Below are positions 10,852-64,000 of a stretch of DNA of 64,000 nucleotides, piece after piece. The notes under the pieces are model-generated. The model was not told where the DNA came from. It was given only the letters and a program-made list of their open reading frames with translations, and made no database searches. Source of the DNA: a phage. The stretch lies in sequence record PZ402305.1, one strand, 5' to 3'. Position 1 is the stretch's first letter; every line of letters begins with the position of its first letter. Made by a program: the position numbers and the translations under genes.

Positions 10852-10856
10852 TACGG

Positions 10857-10873
10857 CGGGGGTTAAGCCCCCG
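10857..10873 (+). terminator. GC hairpin after sheath gene (weak terminator or RNA-stability element)
   Basis: cggggg / cccccg stem with 5-nt loop; only a short U-tract follows. Confidence 0.3.
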
Positions 10874-10897
10874 TTATCAAAATAAAGAGGATCTATA

Positions 10898-11377
10898 ATG
10901 GATAAAATGCTTACTGGCGTAATGGCCTACGACCCATCTCAAGTTATCCTTTCATTAGGTGGTTGGGAACCGTGGGGTTTTGCGGCTGATACTAAAATCG
11001 TTATTGCTAAATCTAACGATATTATCAACCCTTATTCAGGGACTGATGGCGACGTTTCACTAGCTTTGAGTCGTAACCGTTTGGGAACACTCACAATGTC
11101 TTTGCAACGCACATCTCCAGCTAACGAAGTACTTGCAACATATGCACAAACAATGTATTCTACTCGTCAAGTAGCGTTCAGTGTTTATTTAGAAGACCCA
11201 CGTGGCTATTACATTAGCACGATTGGATGGATTCAAAGTCAGCCTGAAGATACTATTGGCGAAATGATTACAGAGAACCAATGGGTTATTGGTCTTAAAG
11301 ATGCAAGCCTTCTGCGTAATGAAGTTGGTGTAGGTTTGAGCACCCTTAACTCAATCTCTGCTCTGACAATTCAATAA
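10898..11377 (+). CDS. Tail tube protein (putative)
   Basis: 159-aa ORF between sheath and chaperone genes; followed by intrinsic terminator. Confidence 0.55.
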   Translation: MDKMLTGVMAYDPSQVILSLGGWEPWGFAADTKIVIAKSNDIINPYSGTDGDVSLALSRNRLGTLTMSLQRTSPANEVLATYAQTMYSTRQVAFSVYLEDPRGYYISTIGWIQSQPEDTIGEMITENQWVIGLKDASLLRNEVGVGLSTLNSISALTIQ

Positions 11378-23325: not shown

Positions 23326-25392
23326 ATGTCAACTACAATTACTAATTTACCCGAAACATCAAAAGTTAATGATTCTGATTACCTGGTTTTAGACCAACCT
23401 GATAAGACTGTTAAAAGCACAGTTTCCAACTTTCTTACTGATACTGGGGTGGTTTTAGCCACCCAGTTGAAAGATACAAATGGAGCAGATTTAATACAAT
23501 CCTCAAATGGTAATACTGTTCAGGAAGAGTTGAATAACAATCTTCTTAATGATCGTGAACAGTGGCGTCGTAGTCTTGCCGAGGCTGGGTTAACTCTTGT
23601 TGATGGTAGTTTTGAAGAAGGGGCTACAGTGGGCAGTGTAACTGATGCTGTTTGGCACATTGCTGGTGGACAGTGTTATACATGGGACGGTGCTCTCCCT
23701 AAAACTGTTCCTGCTGACTCAACCCCTGAATCATCTGGTGGGGTTGGTGGCCGGAAGTGGGTTAGTGTTGGTGATGCGTCTTTAAAGACCATGCTTTATG
23801 GGTGGCAGGGCTATTCATTCATTGACGGTGGCAACTTATCATTATACAAAAAGAAAGGTATCTTTGGTGATTCAGGAACAATTCAAGATAAATACGAAGT
23901 AATTAAATATTCTGATGGGTTCTGGTATAAATATAACAACTCATTGCCATTCTCTTATGGTTCAGCCCCTGATTCCACTTGGACTAACGTAGGTAAGCTG
24001 AATGGTTTTGACGAGAATACCCCAGAGAATTTCGGGGCGGTTGTAAATAATAGTACGTATGACTGCCTGGATGCCATCAACAAGGCAATGGCGACTGGAT
24101 TTTTACGACTCACTGCTGGTGCTACTTATTTTGTTAGCGATGAAGTTGTTATCCCATCGAATTTAGTGATGGAAACAAACGGCGCAACCATTAAAGCGAT
24201 GAGTGGATATTCATGGGGCGGAAAGGCTGTAGTTCGAGCCAGCAAAAAACCAGTAGGAACATCCCCGGATCTTTCATTGCCTGAACAACAAGTTCGTGGA
24301 ATTAGGCACATTGGTACATTAAATATTGATGCTAACAATGTTGCGCCTTACGGTTTTTATGGTTTTGGTGTAGTTGCAGAATCTACCACAGACATTATAT
24401 ATGCTTATAATGCCACAGAAGTTGGAATTGTACTTCTTGGGAGTTGGTATCATAAAGTAAATCAATATATGGCAATTGATTGTGCACGAGGTGTATCTTT
24501 GGCACATGGTTTCTCCGGTGAAACCGGAGACGTAAACGTTAATGGTGTTGAATTTGGTGTCGTCGCTGCGTATAACACATCAAAATCTTTGTCCTATGGG
24601 TATGATCCGTATTCATCATCTTTAACCCCACAGCTCATAGGTGCTGGTGTCACTCTCGGGCAAGGATTGGCATCAAGAATAGGAACATTAATAGCTGAAA
24701 CCACAGCAGGCGCTGGTTTAGCTACTGTTAACGCTGTTAGTTGGTCTGTTGGTTCTATGTACTTCGAAAAATGCAGTGAAGCGCTTGAAGATAGTGCAGA
24801 GCCTGATATTGCGATATTATCAACTACAGGAAATGTCGAGGACCACGTATTTGACATTGGTAATATCCATTTTGGTATAGGGACTGGTATACTGCAAAGA
24901 GCAACGGCAAGTGAGTTTCTCAACATCCAATCCATATACCGTATAGACAATAAAAAAACATGGCATAGTTCTTCAAAGGCATCTTCAAGTTTTGTAAATT
25001 TCGTAAACTATTACGTTCTCAATCCTTATGATTACGTTAAACCTGCCCAACTAACTACTGACGTTGGCAAAGAGGTTGTCAGTTCATCGTCAATGCTTAA
25101 CTTTAAGGATTTTTCAAATACACCAAGTATACCTTTTGTATACACTGGAGGTGAGATAGCGATTCACGTTTCCATCTCTTCCGGTAGTGTAGTATCTACT
25201 GAATTCCAGGTGACTTCTGATTCAGGAATAGAATACATCACATGCACTGGCTCGCCTTTTCAGTTTAACCTTACGCAGCCGAGGACGGTAGGTAATACCT
25301 ATACCGTGACTCTAGCAACTGCGCAATCGGCAGCTTCCGGTCAAGGGGCGATACATATACTGAAACAAAAACCAAGCCAATGGCTTAGGTAA
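23326..25392 (+). CDS. Tailspike-like protein (putative beta-helix)
   Basis: 688-aa ORF; conserved-looking N-terminal anchor segment then Gly/Val/Asn-rich repeats suggestive of a beta-helix; followed by hairpins. Confidence 0.45.
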   Translation: MSTTITNLPETSKVNDSDYLVLDQPDKTVKSTVSNFLTDTGVVLATQLKDTNGADLIQSSNGNTVQEELNNNLLNDREQWRRSLAEAGLTLVDGSFEEGATVGSVTDAVWHIAGGQCYTWDGALPKTVPADSTPESSGGVGGRKWVSVGDASLKTMLYGWQGYSFIDGGNLSLYKKKGIFGDSGTIQDKYEVIKYSDGFWYKYNNSLPFSYGSAPDSTWTNVGKLNGFDENTPENFGAVVNNSTYDCLDAINKAMATGFLRLTAGATYFVSDEVVIPSNLVMETNGATIKAMSGYSWGGKAVVRASKKPVGTSPDLSLPEQQVRGIRHIGTLNIDANNVAPYGFYGFGVVAESTTDIIYAYNATEVGIVLLGSWYHKVNQYMAIDCARGVSLAHGFSGETGDVNVNGVEFGVVAAYNTSKSLSYGYDPYSSSLTPQLIGAGVTLGQGLASRIGTLIAETTAGAGLATVNAVSWSVGSMYFEKCSEALEDSAEPDIAILSTTGNVEDHVFDIGNIHFGIGTGILQRATASEFLNIQSIYRIDNKKTWHSSSKASSSFVNFVNYYVLNPYDYVKPAQLTTDVGKEVVSSSSMLNFKDFSNTPSIPFVYTGGEIAIHVSISSGSVVSTEFQVTSDSGIEYITCTGSPFQFNLTQPRTVGNTYTVTLATAQSAASGQGAIHILKQKPSQWLR

Positions 25393-46457: not shown

Positions 46458-46736
46458 TTAAAATGGTTCGTTAGTCTCCATCATATATTCTGCTTCTAGT
46501 TCTTCCATGTGCTTTCTAAATTGGAAAGCAATTTCTGCTACAGTTACATTTAAATCTTTTTCAAAAACTTCTGTAGAGCCTTCATAAAAACGAATACCGT
46601 CAATTAAAAGCCCTCCGTGGTAATCCCAATCACTTTCACGAGAAAGCGGGTTAGGCTCTTCATAATAGTAATCCACCTCCACGACTAAGGCTTTCCCGTT
46701 ACGAGTGGTGTATTCAAAATCAAAAGTGTTAATCAT
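46458..46736 (-). CDS. Hypothetical protein
   Basis: 92-aa acidic ORF between helicase and glycosyltransferase genes. Confidence 0.5.
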   Translation of the reverse strand: MINTFDFEYTTRNGKALVVEVDYYYEEPNPLSRESDWDYHGGLLIDGIRFYEGSTEVFEKDLNVTVAEIAFQFRKHMEELEAEYMMETNEPF

Positions 46737-47680
46737 TATAGCTCCTCAAATAAAAGTCTACGACGCTCATTCAACACATCAATGTGATAATGAGTCCTGA
46801 CATACTTAGCTAATGCTAATCCTTTCTCCATGCAAACATCGGGAGCACTTAATAAGTATTCCGTAATATCTTTCCACTCGGAAGGTGTTTCAGCAAAGAA
46901 TAACAAATCTTTAAACTCTTGTGTATGATAATTCTCACGAGGAGAACAGATCAAAGGTAAACCCTTAGCACCTGCCTCAAGAATTTTAAGATTGCTTTTT
47001 GCATTATTAAACACGTTATCAAGCAATGGCGCAAGACTGATTTGATGACCATCGTAAGATTCCATGTAGTTGGCATATGGTCTTACACCTTCATAAACAC
47101 AAGTTGGTGCTACATTTTCTCTGATCACAGACCATTCACGACTACTTAAAACTTCAGAATCCCTACGAAAACCACATATTGTAAGATCTTTACCAAAATC
47201 GGGCAAGATAGCCAAATCTTGTTTATGTGTTTCACTTCCAGCCCAGACTAATGGAGTTTTGGAGTAGCGATCACGGGTCAACACAAATTGACCTTCATCG
47301 TAAGGAAGACCATTAGGGATTATGTGCACATTATCATTGTATTGTGAAAGTTCAACTTGCAAAGCAGGTGTCGTAGTTGTAACAAGATCGCTGTGCTCTA
47401 AAAACCATTTTAAATGTTCACGAATACCTGATTCAAAAATACCTTCTAACATGTGTCCTTTTGGAATAACTAAAGAGTCATCCAAATCCATAACCATTTT
47501 AAAGCCTAGGTTTTTAAGGGCTAAAAAGCCCTCTTTACCTTTTGTTGGCACTCCGTTAAAAACGAAAACGTTGTGTTTAGGTTGTGAAGAGAACTGCCTT
47601 GAGTAAGGCAGCACTACCCTATGGAAATCGCAGACACTATAATTGATTCCGTTACGATTGTCAAGAATTATTTGTCCCAT
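46736..47680 (-). CDS. Glycosyltransferase, GT-B-fold-like (paralog 2 of tandem pair)
   Basis: 314-aa ORF; paralogous to 47688..48635 (shared FNNAKSNLKILEAGAKGLP, VRTHY); the KILEAGAKG-P-hh motif resembles GT4-type donor-binding region. Confidence 0.45.
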   Translation of the reverse strand: MGQIILDNRNGINYSVCDFHRVVLPYSRQFSSQPKHNVFVFNGVPTKGKEGFLALKNLGFKMVMDLDDSLVIPKGHMLEGIFESGIREHLKWFLEHSDLVTTTTPALQVELSQYNDNVHIIPNGLPYDEGQFVLTRDRYSKTPLVWAGSETHKQDLAILPDFGKDLTICGFRRDSEVLSSREWSVIRENVAPTCVYEGVRPYANYMESYDGHQISLAPLLDNVFNNAKSNLKILEAGAKGLPLICSPRENYHTQEFKDLLFFAETPSEWKDITEYLLSAPDVCMEKGLALAKYVRTHYHIDVLNERRRLLFEEL

Positions 47681-47687
47681 ACTTCAC

Positions 47688-48635
47688 CTACAAACTTTCA
47701 ATAACCTGGCGTCGCAACTCGTTTGCATCTGCCAGATTATAATGTGTTCGAACATGTTCAGCCAAGAACAAGCCACGATCTTCCCGATAGTTTGGATTGC
47801 GAAGAAGCTTAACAATTTCGTAATGCCATTCTGCTTTATTCTCTGCGTAAGCAACAGCGCGAGCATCTACAGGGTTAAAATAAGGTAATACCTTAGAACA
47901 AACAATTGGAATACCTTTTGCTCCAGCTTCCAGGATTTTGAGATTACTTTTACAATTATTAAAATCATTATCTACCAAAGGAGCTATAGCAATAGCATGA
48001 CTTTCGTAAACACTCATGTAATTATCTAAATCTTTTACAGCGGCTTTATATTTGGCATTTGGTAAATTTCTGCGAATCTTAATCCACTCTTGTCCCGTGA
48101 TGCTTTGTGATGCTTCATATCCCGCAATAGTAAGAAGTTCATCATCGAAAGTATTAGAGACTAGTCGTAAGTCTGGTTCGTGACTAGCACCGCCAGCCCA
48201 TACAACAGGGGTACCGGATGAACGATCATTTGACAAAGTGAATTGTCCGCTATCAAAAGGAAGTGCATTTCGGATCACAACAACATTCCTATTTAAGTGA
48301 CGGATCTTATATGCCAAATATTCCGTAGTCACAATAACCACATCAGCAAGCTTAACCATAGCTACAATAGCATGAGTGTTTGACTCGTATAGACTTGCTA
48401 AATAATGTTCTGGATTAAGTTGGTAAAAATCATCTAAGTCTACAACAACCTTAACACCTTGACGTTTCAAAGATAAAACGTATTCTGCACCTTTAGAGTG
48501 GATACGGTTAAACACAACAACATCTTTCTTAGGTTGAATATTATTGTTGTTAAATGGTATAACAATACGATGATAGTCACAACCGCTGTGAGGTTTTGCA
48601 TCAATTTTTAGTTTAGACCATTTTTTATTTGACAT
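47688..48635 (-). CDS. Glycosyltransferase, GT-B-fold-like (paralog 1 of tandem pair)
   Basis: 315-aa ORF; clear collinear similarity to 46736..47680. Confidence 0.45.
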   Translation of the reverse strand: MSNKKWSKLKIDAKPHSGCDYHRIVIPFNNNNIQPKKDVVVFNRIHSKGAEYVLSLKRQGVKVVVDLDDFYQLNPEHYLASLYESNTHAIVAMVKLADVVIVTTEYLAYKIRHLNRNVVVIRNALPFDSGQFTLSNDRSSGTPVVWAGGASHEPDLRLVSNTFDDELLTIAGYEASQSITGQEWIKIRRNLPNAKYKAAVKDLDNYMSVYESHAIAIAPLVDNDFNNCKSNLKILEAGAKGIPIVCSKVLPYFNPVDARAVAYAENKAEWHYEIVKLLRNPNYREDRGLFLAEHVRTHYNLADANELRRQVIESL

Positions 48636-49308
48636 GTGCTAGTGCCTCCTCATAGGAAATTCGGATTTTCCCATTTTTAATATCCTCTAAAGATGCTTTA
48701 TATTCTTCCCAGTTAATCCCAATAGCAGCCTCTTTCTCTTCTTTTGTCAGGTTAGCAAAAGGCATAGGATTGTTTCCAAAAACATCGTCTGGGTGGATAT
48801 AAGCCATGATACGAAGTGGACAAGGTGTTGCCTGAATACCATGATTCAAACCAGCAGCTTGCAAACGGTGTCCCCATTCAGCATCTTCAAAACCATAACC
48901 GTGAGTGTAAGGACGGAAATAACCCATCTTCTCAACAACGGCACGAGAATACATTGCAAATTGACACATTGCAAGTTCCCAGAGAATAACTTCTCCTTTG
49001 CTTCCAACAACTTTATCTTTGAAATACTCCGGCATACCAAAGAAATCCCATCCTCCAGAGACAGCTTGATCTACAAAGTATGTTTCCCATCCCTCCATGA
49101 CTGGGTAGCAATCATCGTCAAAAATAAACCAATAATCATAACCTTCTTCATAAAACTGGTGCATAAGTTCATTCCTGGCATAAGCTACACCTTTACGATC
49201 TGGATCGTTGAATACTCGAAAATCTGCACGTGGATCTGTTACAAGGTAGTCTTTAAGTGGACGGACACCTACAGTGATAACACCCACTCCGATTTTAATA
49301 TTTTCCAT
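48625..49308 (-). CDS. Glycosyltransferase, GT-A fold (family-2-like)
   Basis: 227-aa ORF with N-terminal GVGVITVGVRP, acidic DxD-type motif YWFIFDDDCYP, and GYGFEDAEWGHRL resembling the GT2 signature. Confidence 0.55.
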   Translation of the reverse strand: MENIKIGVGVITVGVRPLKDYLVTDPRADFRVFNDPDRKGVAYARNELMHQFYEEGYDYWFIFDDDCYPVMEGWETYFVDQAVSGGWDFFGMPEYFKDKVVGSKGEVILWELAMCQFAMYSRAVVEKMGYFRPYTHGYGFEDAEWGHRLQAAGLNHGIQATPCPLRIMAYIHPDDVFGNNPMPFANLTKEEKEAAIGINWEEYKASLEDIKNGKIRISYEEALAHVK

Positions 49309-49316
49309 TTTCTCTC

Positions 49317-49880
49317 CTAAATAGTTTTACTGTGATCATGACAGTGTAATAAATGATGTATAGACCGTTGAGGATTTGTTTGACCTAATCTGTAAATGTG
49401 AAACAGATACATTCCCCGCATCAATCCTAACCTCTTTCCTTTTTCATGTAAAGTGCGAGAGAAAATTAAGTCGAATTGGATAGATTTTTCTTCGAAAGGA
49501 ATTTCATTCCACAATGATTTTCTAAAAAGCAAAAAGAAACCTGCCAGAGGTGTTCCGAAAGGAACTTCTTCAACACTTACTTTATGATATTCTCTTGCAA
49601 TCTTAGCATATTCTATATGGTTTAGAATATCGGGATCATCGTTAATTTGGTTAGAGAAAAGCTGATAACCACTACCTAACCTGTTACAAGTTGCACCTAT
49701 TACATCAAAAGGCGGGTTTGACATAACAAGCTCTTCAAGCATAGAGGGTTGATCAGGTAGGAGGAACATTGTATCGGTATCTCTTAAACACACCCAACTA
49801 TCATCTGGAAGAACGGCAATGGCTTCATTGATAGCCTTGCCGATATTTCCTGTCAGATAGGGAGTAATATAATAAATCAT
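49317..49880 (-). CDS. Glycosyltransferase-like protein (GT-A-like, putative)
   Basis: 187-aa ORF with LRDTDTMF (DxD-like) motif; adjacent to three other glycosyltransferase-like genes. Confidence 0.35.
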   Translation of the reverse strand: MIYYITPYLTGNIGKAINEAIAVLPDDSWVCLRDTDTMFLLPDQPSMLEELVMSNPPFDVIGATCNRLGSGYQLFSNQINDDPDILNHIEYAKIAREYHKVSVEEVPFGTPLAGFFLLFRKSLWNEIPFEEKSIQFDLIFSRTLHEKGKRLGLMRGMYLFHIYRLGQTNPQRSIHHLLHCHDHSKTI

Positions 49881-51202: not shown

Positions 51203-51805
51203 TTATGGACATTCATACCATTCTTTTTTACCACCGAAGGCCATCACCACATCACAAATATCCAGACCAGCTTTGCCTACACCATATGCTTTCAGCTTCC
51301 ATTCCCCATCTTCACGAACCAAGGAAGCCACGTGGCAGATTGTGTTGCCAGCTACTTCAGGAGCCAGGAAGTCAAAATCCAGAATTTCCACATTGCGCTC
51401 GGAGTCGAAGATTTTAAGCATACCTTCAGAAGCATGACCAAAACGTTTCAGACCTGTATCATCATCAATGGTCAGAACAAAGGCAATCTCTTGTGCATCA
51501 GGAGAGATTTTAGCCAGAGTAATATCAATCTGCTCCATGCTGCCAGTTCCATCACGAACATCGTCACCAGCGAAGGTAGAACGTTCAGGATCAAACTTGT
51601 TAGCATAGCAAACCAGATGACGTGCAGACAGCATTTCAGGATTGCCAGCGGCATTGTGACGACAAACCAGTGCACTTACATCCAGATCCAGTTTAGAATC
51701 AGATTTCCAAGAGAATTCCAGGCGCAGTTCTTTCAGAGCCGGAGCAACCTTCTTCAGGGAAATTTTTTCGCTAGAGCCTTTTTTCAGGGAAATTTTATCA
51801 GTCAT
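51203..51805 (-). CDS. terD: TerD-family protein (tellurite-resistance/stress response TerD domain)
   Basis: 200-aa ORF; collinear with TerD proteins: N-terminal ISLKK repeats, LDLDVSALV, FVLTIDDD and C-terminal GEWKLKAYGVGKAGL. Confidence 0.8.
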   Translation of the reverse strand: MTDKISLKKGSSEKISLKKVAPALKELRLEFSWKSDSKLDLDVSALVCRHNAAGNPEMLSARHLVCYANKFDPERSTFAGDDVRDGTGSMEQIDITLAKISPDAQEIAFVLTIDDDTGLKRFGHASEGMLKIFDSERNVEILDFDFLAPEVAGNTICHVASLVREDGEWKLKAYGVGKAGLDICDVVMAFGGKKEWYECP

Positions 51806-52090: not shown

Positions 52091-52319
52091 TTCTTCCTCC
52101 TAATGTTATCTCCGGTTTGTATATACGAAGAATTATAGCATTTTCATTTTCTTTGTCAACCCATTCTTCATAATCAGGCCATACATGAATCTCTACTCTA
52201 CTTACAATATCTTCCATTCGCACAGTCCCAATGAAATACTCTTTGAGACTGCGCATAATGAAAGCTTCTCTCTCACGCCAATAATTTTCTATGACTTGAG
52301 AGGCAAGCTCGTCGATCAT
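52071..52319 (-). CDS. Hypothetical small protein
   Basis: 82-aa ORF; start overlaps vWA stop (ATGA). Confidence 0.45.
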   Translation of the reverse strand: MIDELASQVIENYWREREAFIMRSLKEYFIGTVRMEDIVSRVEIHVWPDYEEWVDKENENAIILRIYKPEITLGGRSVKLRN

Positions 52320-53110
52320 TTTTTAGCACCTACTTTAACAACCCACTCTCCGAACTCTTCAGATAAGAGTTTGTCATAAAGCTCTGAATCTGTCAAGTCT
52401 AAATCTTTAATGCCAATAAAACCAACATTATCATAAGCATTTGCCAGTTCTTTCAGGAAGCCAAACTTCTCATTACCAACGCCAACCATGAACCAATAAA
52501 TAGGTTTATTCTTATTCTCTTCGATAAGACGACGAACAGCACTAGGATCACCATTCTCACCATCAGTCTGGAAGAATACAACACCAGGGGTAACGTCAGA
52601 ACCTGGTTCAGATACAGCTACAACTTTTTCACGCTCTACAGACACTGTTTCAGTTTTACCAAGCAGACGATTAAAGAAGCCTTTCTTTGGAGCCTCCTCT
52701 TGTACCACTTGTTTAGTGGTAATATATTTAGTAACAGTGCCAAAATACTCATCGTAGATATCCGCCATTACAGGGGCGTAATTTGTTCCACCTCCGATAC
52801 GAACATTACGCATACATTTACCAACATAGTCATCGTAAACATCTGCTGTTGCTGGAGTAAGCTCTTGGGAACTCGTATTGAAGGCCCACATATCAATTTG
52901 TTGATTATCGTCGAACAGCATACCAAAAGGAAGCAGTTTACCTACAAAATCACTCACTACCCCACTAGAATATAGACCATGCATACTACCAGAAATATCT
53001 AGAGCACATGCTACACGAAGAACAATCTTACCTTCATTCAGGTTCTTATTCTTTTTCAGAGAGAAAGCAAGGTTTTCTTGACGTTTTTTCAGGCTGATTT
53101 TCTCGGACAT
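52316..53110 (-). CDS. vWA-domain protein (TerY/TerF-like) with TerD-like N-terminal ISLKK motif
   Basis: 264-aa ORF; MIDAS motif DISGSM at start of a vWA-like domain; N-terminus MSEKISLKK mirrors the TerD N-terminus; AAGGAG RBS. Confidence 0.65.
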   Translation of the reverse strand: MSEKISLKKRQENLAFSLKKNKNLNEGKIVLRVACALDISGSMHGLYSSGVVSDFVGKLLPFGMLFDDNQQIDMWAFNTSSQELTPATADVYDDYVGKCMRNVRIGGGTNYAPVMADIYDEYFGTVTKYITTKQVVQEEAPKKGFFNRLLGKTETVSVEREKVVAVSEPGSDVTPGVVFFQTDGENGDPSAVRRLIEENKNKPIYWFMVGVGNEKFGFLKELANAYDNVGFIGIKDLDLTDSELYDKLLSEEFGEWVVKVGAKK

Positions 53111-54315: not shown

Positions 54316-54509
54316 TACTCCTCCTCATTGAAGTCAATATCTGCAAGGAGTTCGAATTTACGGAAGTTACGACAACCTTCATAAATATAACAATCACGAC
54401 AAACTGCTAGAACACTTGGGGGATATATGCCTCCCATCGGTGCGAATCGTTTTTCGTCATCATAACGGACACCAATGTCTTCATCAATTATATAGATACG
54501 GATTCTCAT
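54315..54509 (-). CDS. Hypothetical small protein
   Basis: 64-aa ORF; start overlaps TelA-like stop. Confidence 0.45.
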   Translation of the reverse strand: MRIRIYIIDEDIGVRYDDEKRFAPMGGIYPPSVLAVCRDCYIYEGCRNFRKFELLADIDFNEEE

Positions 54510-55618
54510 TTACCAAGCCCTCGTTTCACAGCAGCTACCATCCCGTCTTCCAGAGATTGAACTTCATTAATATAATCAACACGAGCAGCACGGGCTTCCG
54601 TATTGATGCGGTTAGTTTCTTCCAGCATCTTAACCAAGTTTTCCTGATCGTGACGCAGAGTTTCAATATCCAACACTTGACGGTTAGCCAGTGCTGCTGC
54701 TTCGATCTGATTCTGTGTGGCAAGATCGCTACCCAGTTTAATTGCCAGGTTAAATTCATCAAGAACGTTATTCTGCGTCTCTGCTGCTTTCATTTGACGT
54801 AAGCTCTCGATATACATTGAGAAGTTAGCAGAGTAAGCAGGAATAACATTATTTACTATGTTACGCGCAGATCGCATTAAGCTTGCAGAAACTTTTTGCA
54901 TACCTTGTACACGCGGTCCCATTTGGACACACAGTAGGCGCAATGCTTTTAAATCTGCAATACGAATCTCCAGAAGATCCAAAGTATCTCGGATCACTTG
55001 TCGCTGTTCTACTGCATCTTCTGGAAGAGCAGCCAAAGCTTGTTCTTCTTTTTCATAGGTTGCTGTTAGAAGCTGCATATCTCGGTTCAAACTTGCAGCA
55101 TATTGTCCAATAGCTTGATGTAGCTTTTCAAGATATACCAAGGAATCTTCTTCTTTGCGAATATCCATTTGAAGGTTCTTTACCAACTCTTCAATACGGT
55201 TATTAACATTATCAAACTCCCCAAACAGGTCTTCTTTCATACCCATAACTTTTTTAATGAGTTTAGTAATACCCTTGCTTTGTTTAATAGAGTTTGGATC
55301 AAGTTGTTTTGCCTGTTTAATCAAAGCTGTGAGTCGTTCACTCATCTGATCGCCTTGATTACTACGTTGATGTTTTAATACCTCGGCATTCAAGGAACGC
55401 AAGGTTGTTCCTGCCTCTGCCCCAATCTCTTCGATCTCTTGTCGGGTCATAGAAGGCAAAACTGGAACTTCTTGCGGTGCCGCTGGTGCATAAACAGGAC
55501 TGGCATCTAACACGCTTGGAGCGAATACAGATTTACTTGCATCTGTTGTTGCAGCAAATACGCTCATTTCAGGCTTCTTCTGACCACCAGTAGCTGCTTT
55601 TAAAAATGGACTTGTCAT
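54506..55618 (-). CDS. TelA-like (toxic anion resistance / KlaB-like) protein, putative
   Basis: 370-aa largely alpha-helical, Gln/Leu/Glu-rich ORF of TelA-typical size, between TerD/vWA and TerC genes; call rests mainly on context. Confidence 0.4.
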   Translation of the reverse strand: MTSPFLKAATGGQKKPEMSVFAATTDASKSVFAPSVLDASPVYAPAAPQEVPVLPSMTRQEIEEIGAEAGTTLRSLNAEVLKHQRSNQGDQMSERLTALIKQAKQLDPNSIKQSKGITKLIKKVMGMKEDLFGEFDNVNNRIEELVKNLQMDIRKEEDSLVYLEKLHQAIGQYAASLNRDMQLLTATYEKEEQALAALPEDAVEQRQVIRDTLDLLEIRIADLKALRLLCVQMGPRVQGMQKVSASLMRSARNIVNNVIPAYSANFSMYIESLRQMKAAETQNNVLDEFNLAIKLGSDLATQNQIEAAALANRQVLDIETLRHDQENLVKMLEETNRINTEARAARVDYINEVQSLEDGMVAAVKRGLGK

Positions 55619-56205
55619 TCTTCATTCTCCTCTTCTGCATCTCTTATATATGGTGAAACACCGTACTCTTTAGCTACTTTAACCCAATCGTCCCATTTAT
55701 ACAACCATAATTTTCCTTCGGTCCCTTCTTTATCTGATTTCAACCACATATTAGGTTGCTTACCTGGGTACATGCGATTAGGTTTACGATTATAACCTCT
55801 AACACATCTTGTCGCAAACCTATCTACCAGAACAAGAACATATTTATACTCGTGGTTCAACGGCTCTTTGGAAGTGGCTTTAGGATTAGCCCCTAATTCT
55901 GCTGCCAGTTTTTGCCAATGAGCACCGTGCCTACTAAACTTACCCATACAACCATCAATAGCATGAGCAATTTCGTGCTTCATTGTATCCACGATCATAT
56001 CTCTTGTGGAGTTCTTATGCAAGTGCCAATTTACAACAACAATTTTATCTCGGTAGTTGCACCAACCGAAAGAGTTATTCACTTTGTTTCTAACACAAGC
56101 TTTATATCCTGCTTCACGTAACATGTTGTAGTAAACAGGAAAATCTTCTTTTATTTCCTGCATCACTTCCCACCACAAGAGTTGCAAGTCTCTCTCGGTA
56201 TGCAT
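55615..56205 (-). CDS. SprT-like zinc metallopeptidase (putative)
   Basis: 196-aa ORF with HEIAH (HExxH) zinc-binding motif and a downstream His. Confidence 0.45.
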   Translation of the reverse strand: MHTERDLQLLWWEVMQEIKEDFPVYYNMLREAGYKACVRNKVNNSFGWCNYRDKIVVVNWHLHKNSTRDMIVDTMKHEIAHAIDGCMGKFSRHGAHWQKLAAELGANPKATSKEPLNHEYKYVLVLVDRFATRCVRGYNRKPNRMYPGKQPNMWLKSDKEGTEGKLWLYKWDDWVKVAKEYGVSPYIRDAEEENEE

Positions 56206-57799: not shown

Positions 57800-57824
57800 A
57801 TAAAATAGCCTCCCGAAGGAGGCT
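57800..57824 (-). terminator. Rho-independent terminator after TerC gene
   Basis: Minus-strand agccucc-uucg-ggaggcu stem-loop followed by AUUUUAU. Confidence 0.6.
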
Positions 57825-57830
57825 CATCTA

Positions 57831-58805
57831 TTAAACAGCAGCTTCTTCTTTTTCAGGGAAGATAAAGCTTGCAATAACACCAAGAGCTAATGTGCCTAGA
57901 ACAATCATCAGACTTACGTTAGGGGAAATATCATGCGGGAGGAATGACCACTTGGCATGAAGTGTTTCACCGAACGGGTGATACATAAGTTTAGCACCGA
58001 CAAATACCAGAACCACAGCAACAGCTTTCTCTAAGTGAACCAGATATTTCACAGCCACACTTAACACAAAGAAAAGTGCACGTAAACCAAGAACAGCCAT
58101 CAGCATTGCAGAATAAACTAGCAGAGGTTCTTGTGTCACACCGATCACAGCCGGAACTGAATCAAAAGAGAAGACAATATCTGTAAGCTCAATAACAAAC
58201 ACACAAAGAAGAGCAGGAGTTGCATATTTAATACCATTCTTAATGGTGATGAACTTTTCACCATCCAGTGCATTGTGCACAGGCAGAACTTTACCTACTA
58301 AACGAACAGCCCAATGCTTAGAGTAATCAATATCCTCTTCTTCGTCACCACCTTTGATGATAGCCACGGCAGACCAAGCTACAATCAAACCGAACAACAC
58401 TTGGACCGACCAATGAAGGTTAAACAAAGCGGTCCCTGCTGCAACAAAAATACCTCGGAAGACAATGGCTCCTGCAATTCCCCAAAGTAAAATCTTATGT
58501 TGGAGATGTGTGCTCTTAATTCCAAAGCTTGCAAAAATTGCCATGAACACCATCAGGTTATCTACAGAAAGACTCTTTTCCAACACATAGCCACTTAGGA
58601 AAAGCGCGGCAAACTCTTTACCATGTTCTACCCAAATGAATGCGTAATATCCTAAAGCTAAAGCAATCCAAAAAACAGACCAAAGCAAAGCAGATTTAAT
58701 TCCAATTTCTTTATTCTCTTTATGACCAAAGAAATCAATACCAATAGACAATGCTAAAATACCAACTAAAACAACTACATCAATAATGGGGAAACCAAGT
58801 TGCAT
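57831..58805 (-). CDS. terC: TerC-family integral membrane protein
   Basis: 324-aa ORF with multiple TM helices and the TerC-family signature EKSLSVDN. Confidence 0.75.
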   Translation of the reverse strand: MQLGFPIIDVVVLVGILALSIGIDFFGHKENKEIGIKSALLWSVFWIALALGYYAFIWVEHGKEFAALFLSGYVLEKSLSVDNLMVFMAIFASFGIKSTHLQHKILLWGIAGAIVFRGIFVAAGTALFNLHWSVQVLFGLIVAWSAVAIIKGGDEEEDIDYSKHWAVRLVGKVLPVHNALDGEKFITIKNGIKYATPALLCVFVIELTDIVFSFDSVPAVIGVTQEPLLVYSAMLMAVLGLRALFFVLSVAVKYLVHLEKAVAVVLVFVGAKLMYHPFGETLHAKWSFLPHDISPNVSLMIVLGTLALGVIASFIFPEKEEAAV

Positions 58806-58824: not shown

Positions 58825-58843
58825 GCGGGGAACCACTCCCCGC
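58825..58843 (-). promoter_or_regulatory. 5' leader stem-loop upstream of TerC start
   Basis: gcgggga-guggu-uccccgc hairpin between predicted -10 and the AAGGAG RBS. Confidence 0.3.
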
Positions 58844-58886: not shown

Positions 58887-59108
58887 TTATTTTGAAGAAC
58901 TTGAGGAAAAGATCCCACGTAGTACAGCCATGATAAATGCCACACACACCACAGTCCAGAAGGTGACAGGAACAGTGATATCTGTGTGACCCATCATTTC
59001 AACAACGTAGTTATAAGCCAGCAGCAGAAGCCATGCTGGAATCATACTAATCAGAAAAGCAATAACAAACACAATAATCACTGCAAGAATACCTGCTAAA
59101 ACGTCCAT
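58887..59108 (-). CDS. Small membrane protein (two TM helices)
   Basis: 73-aa hydrophobic ORF (MDVLAGILAVIIVFVIAFLISMIPAWLLLLAY...). Confidence 0.5.
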   Translation of the reverse strand: MDVLAGILAVIIVFVIAFLISMIPAWLLLLAYNYVVEMMGHTDITVPVTFWTVVCVAFIMAVLRGIFSSSSSK

Positions 59109-59121
59109 AATATTTCTCCTC

Positions 59122-59595
59122 TTAAAGTTTATAAATAGTCACATCGTGACCTGTTTTTACTAAAGTTTCTTCAATCATCACTTCAATGATAGCCCAATTA
59201 CCTCCTGCCAACCCTGCTCCAATCATAGGTAAGCCGATCTTACATTTTTGGTCACGGAGAAGCAAATCGTTAGCCATAGCTATTAGTGCATCGTAAAGTG
59301 CATCATAGTCCAACTGACGACCTTTAGCATTGTATCCGTAACGGTATTGCCCGTATAGATTATATACCAAAGGGTCTGATTGTTCGTCTGGCACCCCTAA
59401 ACTAAAACAACCTAGTTTACTTTGATCACCAGCCATTGTGTCTAAGTCTGCTGCATATGCGTAAGGAAATGCTTGTTTGATTTGTGGGGCAATACCTGCC
59501 CCCATATTACACATACAGTTGCAACAATGAGCAATAACAGTTACTTCACCTGCTTTAGCGGCATCAATAAGATTACCTGTTTTCATTTTAAGCAT
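59122..59595 (-). CDS. Macro-domain protein (ADP-ribose binding/processing, putative; start revised to ATG 59595)
   Basis: Macro-like motifs VIAHCCNCMCNMGAGIA and GLPMIGAGLAGGNW; ATG at 59595 has AAGGAG RBS just after the PRTase stop. Confidence 0.45.
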   Translation of the reverse strand: MLKMKTGNLIDAAKAGEVTVIAHCCNCMCNMGAGIAPQIKQAFPYAYAADLDTMAGDQSKLGCFSLGVPDEQSDPLVYNLYGQYRYGYNAKGRQLDYDALYDALIAMANDLLLRDQKCKIGLPMIGAGLAGGNWAIIEVMIEETLVKTGHDVTIYKL

Positions 59596-59608
59596 TTTTA
59601 GCTCCTTA

Positions 59609-60436
59609 TTACAGAATGTGTTGTTTTGTGTAACGATCCAAGAATTCAAAGTTTTCAGCATACTTTGAAATTCGGTTGTAACCTTCTCCCAAGCATCCAA
59701 AGAAAAGTTGCTCTACATAGTAATGTGGCAATTGGCTAAGAATGATTTTGAAGTCTTCATGATTTTGGCCCATAAGATACTTAATAGGACGAACAAGACA
59801 CTGTGCATCACGTTCTTCATTAATCATTTTAACAAACGCTTCTGGTGTATTAATGTAGTTAAAATTCAGTTTAGCTTCGGTATCTGCTTGATTACCTTCA
59901 TATTTTGCAAAATACAGGAAGTAAACATCATTTTTAACTTGATTTTCATTAAGGATCTCAATCAGTTTGTCTTCATGCGTTCCAGTGATATTTACATCAT
60001 CAATGAATACAAGCTTCTTATCACCCCAGAATTCTTTGTTACAGTAGAATGTATCCCCATCAATAAGTTTCTTACGACTAGCTTTATCCAAGAAACCATA
60101 ATCGTTGATATAGCTAACTTTACGATGAATAATGTCCAGTTCTGCTGAACGACCTTGATCATATTGTGCTTGCAACATATTAAAGTAATTAATAAAATGA
60201 TCTGTCATCATTGTTGCAGCATTATGCACATGGTTGTAAGGAGAAGGAATGATAACAAATTGTTCCCCAATATGTTTCATTGCCACTTGAGCAAAAAACT
60301 GAAGTGCCAATTCTTTACCCATACGACGCGCAGCTTGGTTACTACCAAATTTCAATTTTGAATAATCTTGGATATCAAAAGTAGCAGTTTCCAGGTCATC
60401 AAATTTATTTGCAAAAATTTGAGTTTGATTACGCAT
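59609..60436 (-). CDS. Phosphoribosyltransferase (type I PRTase fold) domain protein
   Basis: 275-aa ORF with PRPP-binding signature KKLVFIDDVNITGTHEDKL. Confidence 0.55.
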   Translation of the reverse strand: MRNQTQIFANKFDDLETATFDIQDYSKLKFGSNQAARRMGKELALQFFAQVAMKHIGEQFVIIPSPYNHVHNAATMMTDHFINYFNMLQAQYDQGRSAELDIIHRKVSYINDYGFLDKASRKKLIDGDTFYCNKEFWGDKKLVFIDDVNITGTHEDKLIEILNENQVKNDVYFLYFAKYEGNQADTEAKLNFNYINTPEAFVKMINEERDAQCLVRPIKYLMGQNHEDFKIILSQLPHYYVEQLFFGCLGEGYNRISKYAENFEFLDRYTKQHIL

Positions 60437-61085
60437 TTACAATTTCTCCTCTTTTAAGTTTCTCTAGTAAGTCGTTAGGGTTCTTAATATGACAGAAGTT
60501 AAACCCTAAGTCAACACATTTTCCATCATATTCTTCACTATCGCCTACGTGCAACACTTCGTGCCCTAACAGAGGGATCGGAGAATACGTGAGCGTGCGA
60601 GCAAAGAATCGCGGATCTGGTTTACAAAGTAAAGCTTCATCCGAGAAATGGGTGAACTCAAAACAATTCCAACTATCAAACTTACAAGCACGACGCAGAA
60701 TATCCCCTGATATGAAGTTGGTATTGCTCTTAATACTCAAATCATAACGCCCAGAAAGATACAGCAAGTACATCGGCAGATCTACGGCTACGTGTGGTGG
60801 AAACTTAAGAAACCACTGTTCACACTCGAAACGAAGCTTTGCAGACTTCCAAGGCGTTATCCCAAGTTCAGAACCAAGTCTTTCCCAGGCGTATGCTGCA
60901 CACTCGGCTTTGCCTTGAAGTGCTGCATTATCCAGTTCCTTTTTGATCTTTTTATAAGCTGCTCTTGCTTCAACTTCCGTAATATCTCCATATTTTGCGA
61001 TAGTCCAGGCTCGCATGTCTGCGTAATTGGAGTTTGCTGTGATCAGTGTGTTCCATACATCAAAAGAGATATGTTTAATAGTCAT
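60429..61085 (-). CDS. HAD-superfamily hydrolase (phosphatase-like)
   Basis: 218-aa ORF with HAD motif I-like FDVWNTL, motif III-like KPDPRFF and motif IV-like VGDSEEYD. Confidence 0.55.
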   Translation of the reverse strand: MTIKHISFDVWNTLITANSNYADMRAWTIAKYGDITEVEARAAYKKIKKELDNAALQGKAECAAYAWERLGSELGITPWKSAKLRFECEQWFLKFPPHVAVDLPMYLLYLSGRYDLSIKSNTNFISGDILRRACKFDSWNCFEFTHFSDEALLCKPDPRFFARTLTYSPIPLLGHEVLHVGDSEEYDGKCVDLGFNFCHIKNPNDLLEKLKRGEIVNA

Positions 61086-61086
61086 A

Positions 61087-61692
61087 TTAAGCCCACCATG
61101 CGTCTAAGTTAAGATTACTGTCCACTACCACTTGTTCTATGTGGTAGCCTTTTATCTGTATCCCACTGTTCAAGAGCATATCATACGCTTCATTGAAACG
61201 CAACTTATCTTCTGCGGAATATAAGCGAGCATTATAAAATCGGTAATCAATTTCTTCAGCATTAGAAGAAATACGGAAGAAGTTTGTTTCTACTTCGGGA
61301 TCACTTGCTGAAGTCTTAATGTGAACTTCTCCATAATTTTCTTTACTTAGATCCATGAAAAGAACACAGGCAACATGTTTAAACATTCGTTCCAGTTTGT
61401 AACGAACAACATTGAAACCTGCATTCTCAAGTTTTTCTACACACTGCAACATTAAAGTAGTGTCGAGATCGCTTTGATACTTTGTTAACATACGATCACG
61501 TTGAGACTTTGTATCCCGATGTAAATCAATTGTTGTGCATTTGGCACCAATAATCTTAGCTGCTTTCATCAACTCTTCAGAACTAACGTTAGATAAAGTA
61601 AGATGAAAATGGGCTTTCCACACTTTTTTAGCAGGGACACCAAAAGATTTATCCCCACTATTCGGCATGTTGACTACTACACTATGTTGCAT
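61087..61692 (-). CDS. Hypothetical protein (one HLTL motif reminiscent of 2H phosphoesterases; unconfirmed)
   Basis: 201-aa ORF; only a single H-x-T-x motif seen, so the 2H assignment is not supported. Confidence 0.5.
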   Translation of the reverse strand: MQHSVVVNMPNSGDKSFGVPAKKVWKAHFHLTLSNVSSEELMKAAKIIGAKCTTIDLHRDTKSQRDRMLTKYQSDLDTTLMLQCVEKLENAGFNVVRYKLERMFKHVACVLFMDLSKENYGEVHIKTSASDPEVETNFFRISSNAEEIDYRFYNARLYSAEDKLRFNEAYDMLLNSGIQIKGYHIEQVVVDSNLNLDAWWA

Positions 61693-61912: not shown

Positions 61913-62383
61913 TTAATCTGATTGCCAACCACTTGCCGTTTTGGTCCATAATCTTTGATTATCTGACCCTCTGAAAGGTTTTGTAGTTGGATTGTTTATT
62001 TCATACTTTCCGTCTACAATAATGTCAACAAGATTTTTAATATACAAAGGCACTTCCTCAAAAGTATATCCTGTATACACCATTATATCTTTGCTTGACC
62101 CATAAACATCTCTAACCTTTTCTATAAGGTTTTTAACATTGTAAATATTCTGCGGATCTAATGGCTCTCCTCCTAAAATTGTTAAACCTTTTACAAACGG
62201 TCTTGACAAATCTTTTAAAACTTGCTCTACATTTTCGTGAGTAAACGGTTTCCCATAAGAATAAGACCAGGCTTTTTGGTTAAAACAGCCACGACAACCG
62301 TGGCTACAACCACTAACCCAGAGTGAGCACCTAACTCCCTCGCCATTAATAAGATCTACAGGTTCATATCCTGCAAAATTCAA
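61913..62383 (-). CDS. nrdG: Anaerobic ribonucleotide reductase activating protein (radical SAM)
   Basis: 156-aa ORF with CxxxCxxC radical-SAM cluster motif (CSHGCRGC); ATGA-coupled to nrdD. Confidence 0.8.
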   Translation of the reverse strand: MNFAGYEPVDLINGEGVRCSLWVSGCSHGCRGCFNQKAWSYSYGKPFTHENVEQVLKDLSRPFVKGLTILGGEPLDPQNIYNVKNLIEKVRDVYGSSKDIMVYTGYTFEEVPLYIKNLVDIIVDGKYEINNPTTKPFRGSDNQRLWTKTASGWQSD

Positions 62384-64000
62384 AGATGTTTCTCCCTTTG
62401 CAAAACTTCCTGCATTTTACCTTTGTTGTAAGGGCGTGAATTAGGGGCAGAAAGATACCCTGACACACGTCTAACTACAGAAATAGTTTCTTCTTCATGG
62501 TTGCCACAATCAGGACACTCAAACCCTTTAGCCGTTGCCTTAAATTCTCCATGAAAACCACACTTAAAGCATTGATCCACGGGCTGATTAATACCAAAAT
62601 AGTGAATATGTTCATAAGCGTAGTCTACTAAAGTCTCCAAAGCTTCTAAGTTATTCTTTAAGTTTGGTGTTTCGACATAACTTATGTTACCACCATTACT
62701 AATCTGTGCAAAACCTGCTTCATAATCCCATTTTTCAAAAGGATTTGTTACCAGCCATACAGGTTGATGAAAAGAGTTAGTAAGATAGTCTCTTTCTACC
62801 AAACCTGGGTATTTTTCATTTAAAGCTGTTGCAAACTTATAGCACAAGGATTCTGCTGGAGTTCCATAGAGACTAAACGCCAGCTTAGATCGTTCTTTAA
62901 ACACAGCACACACATCTTTCATATGTTGCAGAATGCTTTTACCAAGTTCCTTTTTATCTTTTTCTTCTGGATAAAGGATTTCCAAAGCTTCGGCAAGACC
63001 TACATAACCAATACTAATAGAAGCATAACCACCTTCAAACAAAACACCAATTTCATCATTGGCATTTAAACGCGCTAAAGCCCCTTCCATGAAAAGAATA
63101 GGGTTTTCAGATGCTTTGGTATGTCTGATACGGTTTACACGTAGCATGTGAGCATCATAGGCTATCTCCATATGTTTATTAAGAAGATCGGTGAAAGATT
63201 CTCCTTTACTTCTCGCTTCCGCAGCGATCAGAGGTAAGTTGATAGAAACTACTCCAAGGTTGAATCGTCCATCGTATTTTTCTCCTTGTTCGGTGGCATA
63301 GTACGACAAAAAGGAACGACAACCCATACTCGTAACAGTACCATCTGCTGATCCCGTAACTTCTTTGTTCAAAGGAACAGAAATAAAATCTGGATAAATA
63401 CGATCAGCACAACATGCCAAAGCTTGTTGCTTAAGATCATAGTTAGGATCACTAGGTTTCATGTTAACACCTTCTTGTAAAAAGAAAATAACTTTAGGGA
63501 ATACAGGCGTTACATGATCTTTGCCTAGACCGTTACTATGCACTTTAAGATAGTTGGCTGTGATCATTCTGCCAAAAACAGAGGTATCCAGACCCATACT
63601 GATTGTAATAAAAGGAGATTGTCCATTAACACTCATTAAAGTATTAACCTGATACAAGAGAGTTTGCATAGCATCGTATACATCTTGTTCGGTCATTTCT
63701 AGGGCTTCTTTCCTTGCATAACAACCGTAGCGACGTTTGGTTATCTCCATGTTTTTAAGGAAACTAGCTTCAACATAAGGACTAAGACCTTTATCAATGT
63801 GCGCACACGTCTGACCTCCATACTGACTGGAGGCAACAGCTTGGATGATTTGAGTTAGCACTGTGGTAGCTACTCCAATAGATTTTGGTTTTTCTATCTG
63901 TGCAGCACCGATCTTAAAACCATTTTCTAACATATCTTGATAATTAACAAGACAACAGTTTGTAAGAGGAGAGAGCAGATAATCCAAGTCGTGAATATGT
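62380..64000 (-). CDS. nrdD: Anaerobic ribonucleoside-triphosphate reductase, C-terminal part (N-terminus beyond window end)
   Basis: Reading frame stays open to position 64000; C-terminal glycyl-radical motif RVSGYL and zinc ribbon CFKCGF ... CPDCGN. Confidence 0.8.
   Translation of the reverse strand, partial: HIHDLDYLLSPLTNCCLVNYQDMLENGFKIGAAQIEKPKSIGVATTVLTQIIQAVASSQYGGQTCAHIDKGLSPYVEASFLKNMEITKRRYGCYARKEALEMTEQDVYDAMQTLLYQVNTLMSVNGQSPFITISMGLDTSVFGRMITANYLKVHSNGLGKDHVTPVFPKVIFFLQEGVNMKPSDPNYDLKQQALACCADRIYPDFISVPLNKEVTGSADGTVTSMGCRSFLSYYATEQGEKYDGRFNLGVVSINLPLIAAEARSKGESFTDLLNKHMEIAYDAHMLRVNRIRHTKASENPILFMEGALARLNANDEIGVLFEGGYASISIGYVGLAEALEILYPEEKDKKELGKSILQHMKDVCAVFKERSKLAFSLYGTPAESLCYKFATALNEKYPGLVERDYLTNSFHQPVWLVTNPFEKWDYEAGFAQISNGGNISYVETPNLKNNLEALETLVDYAYEHIHYFGINQPVDQCFKCGFHGEFKATAKGFECPDCGNHEEETISVVRRVSGYLSAPNSRPYNKGKMQEVLQREKHL

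Follow-up and report, generated by a model that had tools for sequence, protein, structure and literature searches.

Four closely packed genes on the minus strand (59122–61692) lie between the genes for TerC and NrdG/NrdD in the stretch of phage DNA analysed here (sequence record PZ402305.1, 64,000 nt, in the following called the window). We propose that these genes probably do not form one three-enzyme pathway, and that the block consists of a conserved two-gene cassette, encoding a hydrolase of the haloacid dehalogenase (HAD) superfamily and a type I phosphoribosyltransferase (PRTase) of the family PF15610 (PRTase_3), and of two independent accessory genes, one for a stand-alone macrodomain and one for a protein of 201 amino acids (aa). 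The cassette would represent the small-molecule arm of a Ter-type system, with the macrodomain acting separately from it. The genes of the block were called from a mechanical list of open reading frames (ORFs) and Pfam scans of the window. Both bear out the original prediction, which was made from the sequence alone and placed three consecutive genes for a HAD hydrolase, a PRTase and a macrodomain protein between TerC (57831–58805, downstream) and NrdG/NrdD (61913–63987, upstream); the gene for the 201-aa protein, which lies in the same range, had been left undescribed. In the order of transcription, the block contains:

61087–61692, minus strand: 201-aa protein of the phAPEC8 gp219 type, phrog_22504
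60429–61085, minus strand: HAD-superfamily hydrolase (PF00702 sub-threshold, PDB 2om6, NCBIfam HAD-IA, ortholog alignment)
59609–60436, minus strand: type I PRTase, PF15610 PRTase_3, ComF-like (Pfam)
59122–59595, minus strand: stand-alone macrodomain, 157 aa, phrog_335 (PF01661)

The gaps among the four genes do not exceed 13 nt, and the genes appear to be co-transcribed. The stop codon of the 201-aa gene is separated by 1 nt from the start of the HAD gene, which in turn shares its final 8 nt with the beginning of the PRTase_3 gene. HAD and PRTase_3 are translationally coupled. The PRTase_3 stop codon is followed by a ribosome-binding site (TAAGGAG) and the ATG of the macrodomain gene at 59595; a 192-aa ORF with a TTG start from the mechanical list was rejected as the real macrodomain gene in favour of this ATG. 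Over 4.6 kb around the block, the window is 99% identical to the Escherichia phages vB_Ec-G1 and phAPEC8 (Phapecoctavirus, Stephanstirmvirinae) and 90–98% identical to dozens of further Phapecoctavirus genomes, in which the block genes are mostly annotated as 'hypothetical', 'hydrolase', 'phosphatase' or 'orotate PRTase'.

The HAD-PRTase_3 pair and its Ter neighbours

The PRTase matched PF15610 over profile positions 9–264 of 264 (E = 4.5e-42, 144.7 bits, gathering cutoff 28.7), and its loop for binding of phosphoribosyl pyrophosphate (PRPP) is intact: LVFIDDVNITGTHE. The motif VFIDDVNITGT, which had been taken for a PRPP loop, is genuine by the Pfam match and by its conservation, since D146, D147, T151, G152, T153, H154 and E155 are invariant in an alignment of 24 homologs with identities down to 45%. 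The motif SPYN..NAA and the loop RKVSY..DYGFL are likewise invariant in this alignment, and PF15610 was found in all 241 of the 241 detected PRTase_3 homologs. The protein combines the type I PRTase fold with the acidic pair and the TG(T) PRPP loop, and its AlphaFold (AF2) model (pLDDT 92.5) contains an extra C-terminal helical domain comprising residues ~186–275. Comparison by sequence with solved structures gave chance matches only (E up to 1) and no nucleobase PRTase, and no NCBIfam model was matched (E up to 0.01). Because the comparison with solved structures yielded only chance matches, a fold search was run, in which ComFC was the best structural match (Helicobacter pylori ComF, PDB 7p0h), at a sequence identity of only 9%. 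Unlike ComFC, the window protein has no competence context, differs in the N-terminal region and adds the C-terminal helical domain. Judged by sequence and model, PRTase_3 looks catalytically intact and represents a separate, ComF-like family of type I PRTases, with no ortholog among the characterised nucleobase PRTases. Among 50,697 phage records, 157 contain a member of this family.

The HAD protein scored 21.2 bits against PF00702, which is under the cutoff of 26.4, but there are homologs of it that pass the Pfam threshold. It matched PDB 2om6 (PH0253 of Pyrococcus horikoshii, E = 7.6e-5), with which it has the motif FDVWNTL in common, and weakly also NCBIfam HAD-IA subfamilies; the P. horikoshii protein, which has the DVWNT motif too, is itself uncharacterised. 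All four HAD motifs are kept in an alignment of 30 orthologs from related loci (I, [FL]D[VFIA][WY]xT; II, SNT; III, KP; IV, GDxxxxD), and the window protein carries the nucleophile, the Ser/Thr, the Lys and the acidic motif as FD8VWNT, SNT, CKP and GDSEEYD, the acidic residues of motif IV that are needed for Mg2+ being retained. In canonical HAD phosphomonoesterases, an Asp two positions after the nucleophile serves as general acid/base. At this position the window protein has a Trp, and the 30 orthologs have a Trp as well, or once a Tyr, and never an Asp. The HAD protein is hence predicted to be a phosphoryl-transfer enzyme of the HAD fold, which is not to be filed as a canonical phosphatase.

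The gene neighbourhoods of PRTase_3 and its relatives were compared in 16 loci from viruses, 12 from bacteria and further contigs obtained by exact protein look-up; their ORFs were searched with the window proteins, the neighbours were clustered all against all, and the census was repeated with profile hidden Markov models. A HAD gene is located directly upstream of PRTase_3 in 31 out of 31 loci, viral as well as bacterial, with PRTase identities down to 34%, and two isolates, Caulobacter phage CcrColossus and Rhizobium phage RHph_TM21B, show the same pairing. In the latter, a metallophosphatase gene is present upstream of the pair. A T4-like metagenomic contig (L005) encodes directly after the pair a 138-aa protein with the 2H-phosphoesterase motifs HISL and HITI (10827–11243), which represents a third partner other than the macrodomain gene.

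The window encodes TerD, TerC, TelA and a TerF/TerY-type von Willebrand factor A (vWA) protein within 51.2–58.8 kb on the minus strand, an arrangement that is kept in related phages. The Ter context, which had been deduced from the adjacent TerC, is therefore real and far larger than TerC alone, as TelA, an SprT-like protein, vWA-TerF and TerD are encoded on the same strand. Elsewhere, Ter-domain genes lie at most 10 kb from the pair in the whole phAPEC8/phi92-like clade and in the loci L003, L012, L015, L016, L018, L019 and L033. A 350-kb jumbo-phage contig has the order TelA, vWA, TerC, an unassigned gene, HAD, PRTase_3, TerD; TerB adjoins the pair in L012; and in Haliea (L033) the pair ends a classic bacterial Ter cluster composed of TerC/DUF475, TerD, three TerY-type vWA proteins with TerY_C, PP2C and TerD. 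A Ter-linked module of PRTase and HAD, as assumed in the original prediction, thus recurs, with the pair repeatedly found among TerD, TelA, TerC, vWA-TerF and TerB. A different neighbour occurs in Sinorhizobium, Ensifer and Rhizobium, where a gene for a ClpP-like protease comes after the pair and no Ter genes lie nearby, both on chromosomes and on large plasmids (L024, 9061–11584; also L023, L025, L026, L029 and plasmids H111–H121).

Anantharaman, Iyer and Aravind reportedly predicted in 2012 a product-making PRTase/HAD arm of Ter-dependent stress-response systems, and their study is also said, among others by later citing papers, to have defined PF15610. PRTases and HAD phosphoesterases have been described as the signal-synthesis component of Ter systems, and phage-encoded Ter systems were reported for Acinetobacter phage vB_AbaM_ME3 and for Caulobacter jumbo phages (Iyer et al., 2021; PMC7824862). 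The window resembles the Ter systems of that description in the possession of TerD, TerC, TelA and a TerF-type vWA protein together with PRTase and HAD, and the PF15610/HAD pair also occurs in CcrColossus and in a bacterial TerY-P/TerD/TerC cluster. It is unlike the described systems in that the genes are carried by a 150-kb E. coli myovirus and not by a jumbo phage, its biosynthetic arm comprises only two genes, an SprT-like peptidase is interleaved and the HAD protein is without the Asp at nucleophile+2. The ORFs that were scanned from 48.6 to 61.7 kb gave no sign of a second PRTase, an ATP-grasp protein or a TIM-barrel enzyme. PF15610 is also absent from the classical ter plasmids of enterobacteria: PRTase_3 was not found on them, and plasmid matches came only from Rhizobium, Sinorhizobium and Hymenobacter.

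In the mechanism that we propose, HAD and PRTase_3 would form the small-molecule arm of a phage Ter-type set of TerD, vWA-TerF, TelA, SprT and TerC. PRTase_3 would convert PRPP and a base-like nucleophile to a ribonucleoside-5'-phosphate-like compound and pyrophosphate, and the Mg-dependent HAD enzyme would then remove or transfer a phosphoryl group; given the missing Asp at nucleophile+2, the leaving group may be a good one, or the acid may be provided by a cap domain. The product may work together with the membrane-associated TerC/TelA/TerD/vWA proteins and, according to a published proposal, could be a signal that serves to exclude superinfecting phages or to make the infected cell resistant to stress. 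The macrodomain would independently strip ADP-ribose (ADPR) from DNA or dephosphorylate ADPR-1''-phosphate (ADPR-1''P).

The macrodomain and the 201-aa protein

The macrodomain protein matched PF01661 just above the cutoff of 22 (E = 8.7e-5, 22.9 bits). In the PDB it matched SCO6735 (E = 3e-13), BT1257 (E = 1e-9), TARG1 (E = 7e-7) and the macrodomain of DarG (5m31, E = 1.7e-5), and it also matched the PADLOC model for DarG (E = 3e-10). H24, N27, Q85, G126 and G128 in SCO6735 have their counterparts in H23, N26, Q83, G126 and G128 of the window protein, indicating an active site of the SCO6735 type, and Lys-type catalytic residues as in TARG1 (K84/D125) or DarG (K80) are not present. Among phage proteins, Tk.4 of the T4-like Shigella phage Shfl2 is 38% identical (E = 5e-20), and T4-like Tk.4 also has a Gln at the position of SCO6735 Q85; the macrodomain protein of Vibrio phage 184E37.1 is 36% identical over the full length (E = 6e-26). 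By these matches, the protein can be assigned to the ALC1/TARG1/DarG/SCO6735 class and to the phage Tk.4/AdfM-Adpp family.

Several members of this class have been characterised. T4 Tk.4 was named AdfM and is needed against DarTG2 (bioRxiv 10.1101/2025.11.20.689424), and the PhiKZ macrodomain (gp104) has the same anti-DarTG2 role (PMC13309987). ADP-ribose that DarT has attached to thymidine in DNA is removed by SCO6735, which relies on Gln85, Asn27 and Gly128, not on the Lys/Asp dyad of TARG1 (PMC9411070). Adpp of NARP1-AP converts ADPR-1''P to ADPR and thereby defeats RES-type NAD+ phosphorylases (Osterman et al., bioRxiv 10.64898/2026.01.28.702374). The window macrodomain resembles AdfM (T4 Tk.4) in being a stand-alone protein of ~155 aa with the Asn and the GxGxAGG loop kept and a Gln at the Q85 position, whereas PhiKZ AdfM has a Lys (K78) where the window protein has the Gln. 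Unlike AdfM genes, the window gene is located inside a Ter block, and its AdfM-like activity is putative. SCO6735 (S. coelicolor, PDB 5e3b), a protein with a long mobile loop, is the best match among solved structures and shares the active-site residues, but is a bacterial protein with ~30% identity to the window macrodomain. Likeness to Adpp, which was characterised from phage Gary, is suggested by the 36% identity to the 184E37.1 macrodomain. In 184E37.1, the genes for a PRPP-synthetase-like (Adps-like) protein, the macrodomain and a Nampt-like (Namat-like) protein form a contiguous operon (L041, 3166–6107), the arrangement of which matches NARP1-AP with the macrodomain in the position of Adpp, and phrog_335 carries a 'phosphatase'/Poa1p-type annotation that is shared with Adpp.

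The macrodomain family was found in 2,988 phage records, including T4-like phages with the gene tk.4, compared to 157 records for PRTase_3 (~19-fold). A macrodomain gene follows PRTase_3 only in phAPEC8/phi92-like (Stephanstirmvirinae-like) contigs, sometimes with 0.5–0.9 kb inserted, and in one further locus it is located 7 kb from the pair. The adjacency is thus a trait of one phage subfamily. In two phi92-like loci (L006 and L010, 10722–11564), the stop-to-stop frame that holds the macrodomain spans 281 codons and overlaps the end of PRTase_3. An ADP-ribose-derived product of the PRTase/HAD pathway, as deduced earlier from the adjacent macrodomain, is not supported, given the restriction to one clade, the much wider occurrence of the macrodomain family and the stand-alone counter-defence function of its relatives. 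An analogy to salvage of NAD or ADPR had also been considered; it stands insofar as the macrodomain family joins NAD reconstitution in Vibrio phages, but tblastn with the 184E37.1 queries gave no match to Adps or Namat in the window, in 1–50 kb of phAPEC8 or in 111–140 kb of EF1-1, which together cover ~130 kb of this phage type and leave ~15% of the genome outside.

The 201-aa protein had no match by sequence in Pfam, NCBIfam or the PDB. Close homologs occur in related phages only, and 257 relatives emerged when 1.84 billion representatives were searched with a profile; no homologs were found on plasmids. Invariant in this family are H28, H30, T32, K51, D66, M68, T70, R97, K99, E101, E122, H124, K126, S142, N144, E186, D191, D197 and W200, which include the motifs HxHxT, RxKxE and ExHxK. 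The alternating positions of the invariant residues on predicted strands suggest an active site. The AF2 model is confident and has no fold relative in the PDB. Some homologs carry a fused NUDIX, SpoT-type HD_4 alarmone-hydrolase or helix-turn-helix (HTH) domain, and in T4-like or jumbo contigs the family occurs near genes for NadR-like and nicotinamide mononucleotide adenylyltransferase (NMNAT)-like proteins. The gene stands alone among the early genes of Rheinheimera Barba phages and is missing from L006 and L010, where HAD, PRTase_3 and macrodomain genes remain. We conclude that it is an independently mobile phage family, and the protein is probably an enzyme directed at nucleotides or RNA ends. 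Classification as 2H phosphoesterase was rejected, as a LigT-like fold bearing two HxT/S motifs is not found. Two PADLOC 'AbiEi' profiles matched the protein (E = 5e-13); an AbiEi antitoxin was likewise rejected, since there is no Pfam match to AbiEi or HTH and no AbiEii-like nucleotidyltransferase is annotated beside the family in five contexts.

Weighing of the possible functions

Several points weigh against a Ter-related function of the cassette that is separate from the macrodomain. The closest structural relative of PRTase_3, ComFC, is known mainly for its part in DNA uptake, and we know of no demonstration of PRTase activity for it. A literature search retrieved no experimental work, whether biochemical or genetic, on any PF15610/HAD pair and no assay of any family member, so that not only the product but also the activity of the PRTase is a prediction. 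For the HAD enzyme, a nucleotide 5'-phosphomonoesterase step is not assured, because the Asp at nucleophile+2 is missing. In seven non-redundant loci (L005, L013, L017, L020, L021, L028 and the rhizobial group), no Ter gene is present within 10 kb of the pair. In RHph_TM21B, a gene annotated as NMNAT/NUDIX (L044, 5804–6367) lies ~250 nt downstream of the pair, a solitary hint that the pair may be connected with NAD metabolism; across the loci searched, NAD-salvage genes were found next to the pair in only two isolated cases. The macrodomain family was recruited into an operon for PRPP-type and ADPR-type salvage in Vibrio phages, and the dense packing of the block and its apparent co-transcription are compatible with a functional link among all of its genes.

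Such a link would be made explicit if the 201-aa protein, HAD, PRTase_3 and the macrodomain acted in a single pathway by which a molecule derived from ADP-ribose, NAD or ribose phosphate is made, destroyed or salvaged, for example as a third kind of NAD reconstitution or as a way of erasing signals, directed against defences that deplete NAD or signal through ADPR. The tight packing, the apparent co-transcription and the synteny across the phAPEC8/phi92-like clade, in which PRTase identity falls to 62%, would agree with this, as would the presence of the macrodomain family in Adps-Macro-Namat operons with Adpp converting ADPR-1''P to ADPR, the fusion of 201-aa homologs to NUDIX or SpoT-like HD domains and their proximity to NadR- and NMNAT-like genes in other phages, and the NMNAT/NUDIX-annotated gene after the pair in the Rhizobium phage. 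However, synteny inside one phage subfamily is expected of any neighbours, and outside this subfamily neither the macrodomain gene nor the 201-aa gene accompanies HAD-PRTase_3, also when profile searches are included, while ~2,800 phage genomes have the macrodomain gene without PRTase_3. Moreover, no Adps or Namat was found in the sequence searched, PRTase_3 is of type I and ComF-like rather than Nampt-type, and the recurring partners of the pair are Ter proteins and not NAD enzymes. We consider a single pathway unlikely. A combined version, in which the HAD(Trp)-PRTase_3 pair makes a new ribosylated molecule that gates the TerC/TelA/TerD/vWA module, for instance in superinfection exclusion or in envelope control of the infected cell, and in which the macrodomain and the 201-aa protein, as HxHxT/ExHxK enzyme, are recruited to the same ADP-ribose-like or phosphoribosyl metabolite, would amount to a four-enzyme nucleotide-signal or NAD-type counter-defence pathway and appears to us even harder to credit.

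Alternatively, PRTase_3 and HAD could carry out ordinary nucleotide salvage for phage DNA replication and would then belong with NrdD/NrdG and other genes of nucleotide metabolism rather than with Ter. We regard this as very improbable, as neither a solved nucleobase PRTase (E up to 1) nor an NCBIfam model (E up to 0.01) was matched, ComFC came out best in the structural comparison, salvage would be undone by an obligate partner of phosphatase type, and in bacteria and unrelated phages the pair keeps Ter neighbours and not nrd genes. A further question is whether PRTase_3 is biosynthetic at all, or instead a ComFC-like nucleic-acid factor or a toxin-like effector comparable to the PRTases of retrons and ShosTA, which would deplete PRPP or nucleotides in host takeover with HAD as modulator. 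The zinc finger of ComFC is formed by cysteines. In the alignment of 24 homologs, the N-terminal region of PRTase_3 is without conserved cysteines of this kind, and an adjacent helicase or DprA-type partner is absent. The invariance of the PRPP loop and of many other residues is that of a dedicated enzyme, and the stable presence of the pair on bacterial chromosomes and plasmids with no obvious antitoxin argues against a toxin, which leaves a non-biosynthetic role as the least probable of the functions considered.

With the cassette probably being the small-molecule arm of a Ter system and the macrodomain a separate counter-defence gene, the window is a further instance of what is already known, as both phage-borne Ter systems with a PRTase/HAD arm and orphan anti-defence macrodomains of phages have been recorded. 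In the searchable literature, no identification of the product of the Ter-linked PRTase/HAD module was found since its prediction in 2012. The window contains the module in its smallest form, as two overlapping genes beside a compact set of TerD, vWA, TelA and TerC, and this in E. coli phages that are easily grown (phAPEC8, phi92 and many relatives), which makes the question of the Ter metabolite directly testable. Separation of the macrodomain gene from the pathway and its placement in the newly characterised AdfM/Adpp counter-defence family predicts that phAPEC8-like phages are resistant to DarTG2 and/or aRES. In addition, the Trp in place of the Asp at nucleophile+2 marks the HAD partner as catalytically unusual, and the 201-aa gene defines a new conserved phage family with some members fused to NUDIX or alarmone-hydrolase domains.

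Gene order and further features of the window

Beyond ~38 kb, the window has genes on the minus strand only. The order of transcription is NrdD, NrdG, a small ORF, the 201-aa gene, HAD, PRTase_3, macrodomain, a 73-aa membrane protein and TerC, followed by four uncharacterised genes, SprT-like, TelA, the vWA protein of TerF type and TerD; three of the four uncharacterised genes between TerC and SprT-like are annotated as hypothetical in related phages. The features outside the block are:

61913–63987, minus strand: NrdG (61913–62383) and NrdD (from 62380), upstream of the block
58887–59108, minus strand: 73-aa predicted membrane protein, phrog_16065, kept between macrodomain and TerC in the phAPEC8-like phage clade
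58856–58883, minus strand: match to a sigma-70-like promoter, TTGACA-16-TAAGAT, 5' of TerC, an annotated promoter in phage ASO2A
~58825–58842: GC-rich hairpin GCGGGGA-GTGGT-TCCCCGC in the TerC leader, between the promoter-like site and the TerC ribosome-binding site
57831–58805, minus strand: TerC-family integral membrane protein (PF03741, E = 3e-40)
57807–57824, minus strand: intrinsic-terminator-like hairpin AGCCTCC-TTCG-GGAGGCT with T-rich tail, an annotated terminator in ASO2A
55615–56205, minus strand: SprT-like zinc metallopeptidase domain protein (PF10263, E = 4.2e-9)
54506–55618, minus strand: TelA-like protein (PF05816, E = 3.2e-33)
52316–53110, minus strand: vWA domain protein, TerF C-terminal type (PF10138, E = 1.6e-37)
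51203–51805, minus strand: TerD-domain protein (PF02342, E = 3.2e-28)

The terminator-like hairpin after TerC closes the block. Scans for promoters and terminators gave counts similar to those in shuffled sequence, and only sites that match the independent annotations in ASO2A were kept. The yybP-ykoY Mn riboswitch often precedes genes of the TerC family, which was the motive for an Rfam scan; between 50.5 and 62.5 kb, no RNA family was found at E up to 0.1. The GC-rich hairpin at 58825–58842 is not followed by a T-run and matches no Rfam family, so that it could be a leader element.

The SprT-like gene overlaps the start of TelA by 4 nt (55615–55618), which suggests translational coupling of the SprT-like protease to the Ter membrane module; SprT is not present in some related loci (L006, L007 and L010). 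Directly downstream of primase/helicase, four successive glycosyltransferase-like genes are located at 46736–49880, and one of them weakly matches the TET-associated glycosyltransferase PF20691. Elsewhere in phAPEC8, a set of genes for dTDP-rhamnose synthesis (L042, 37131–40409) and a Sir2-like gene (24129–24929) are found.

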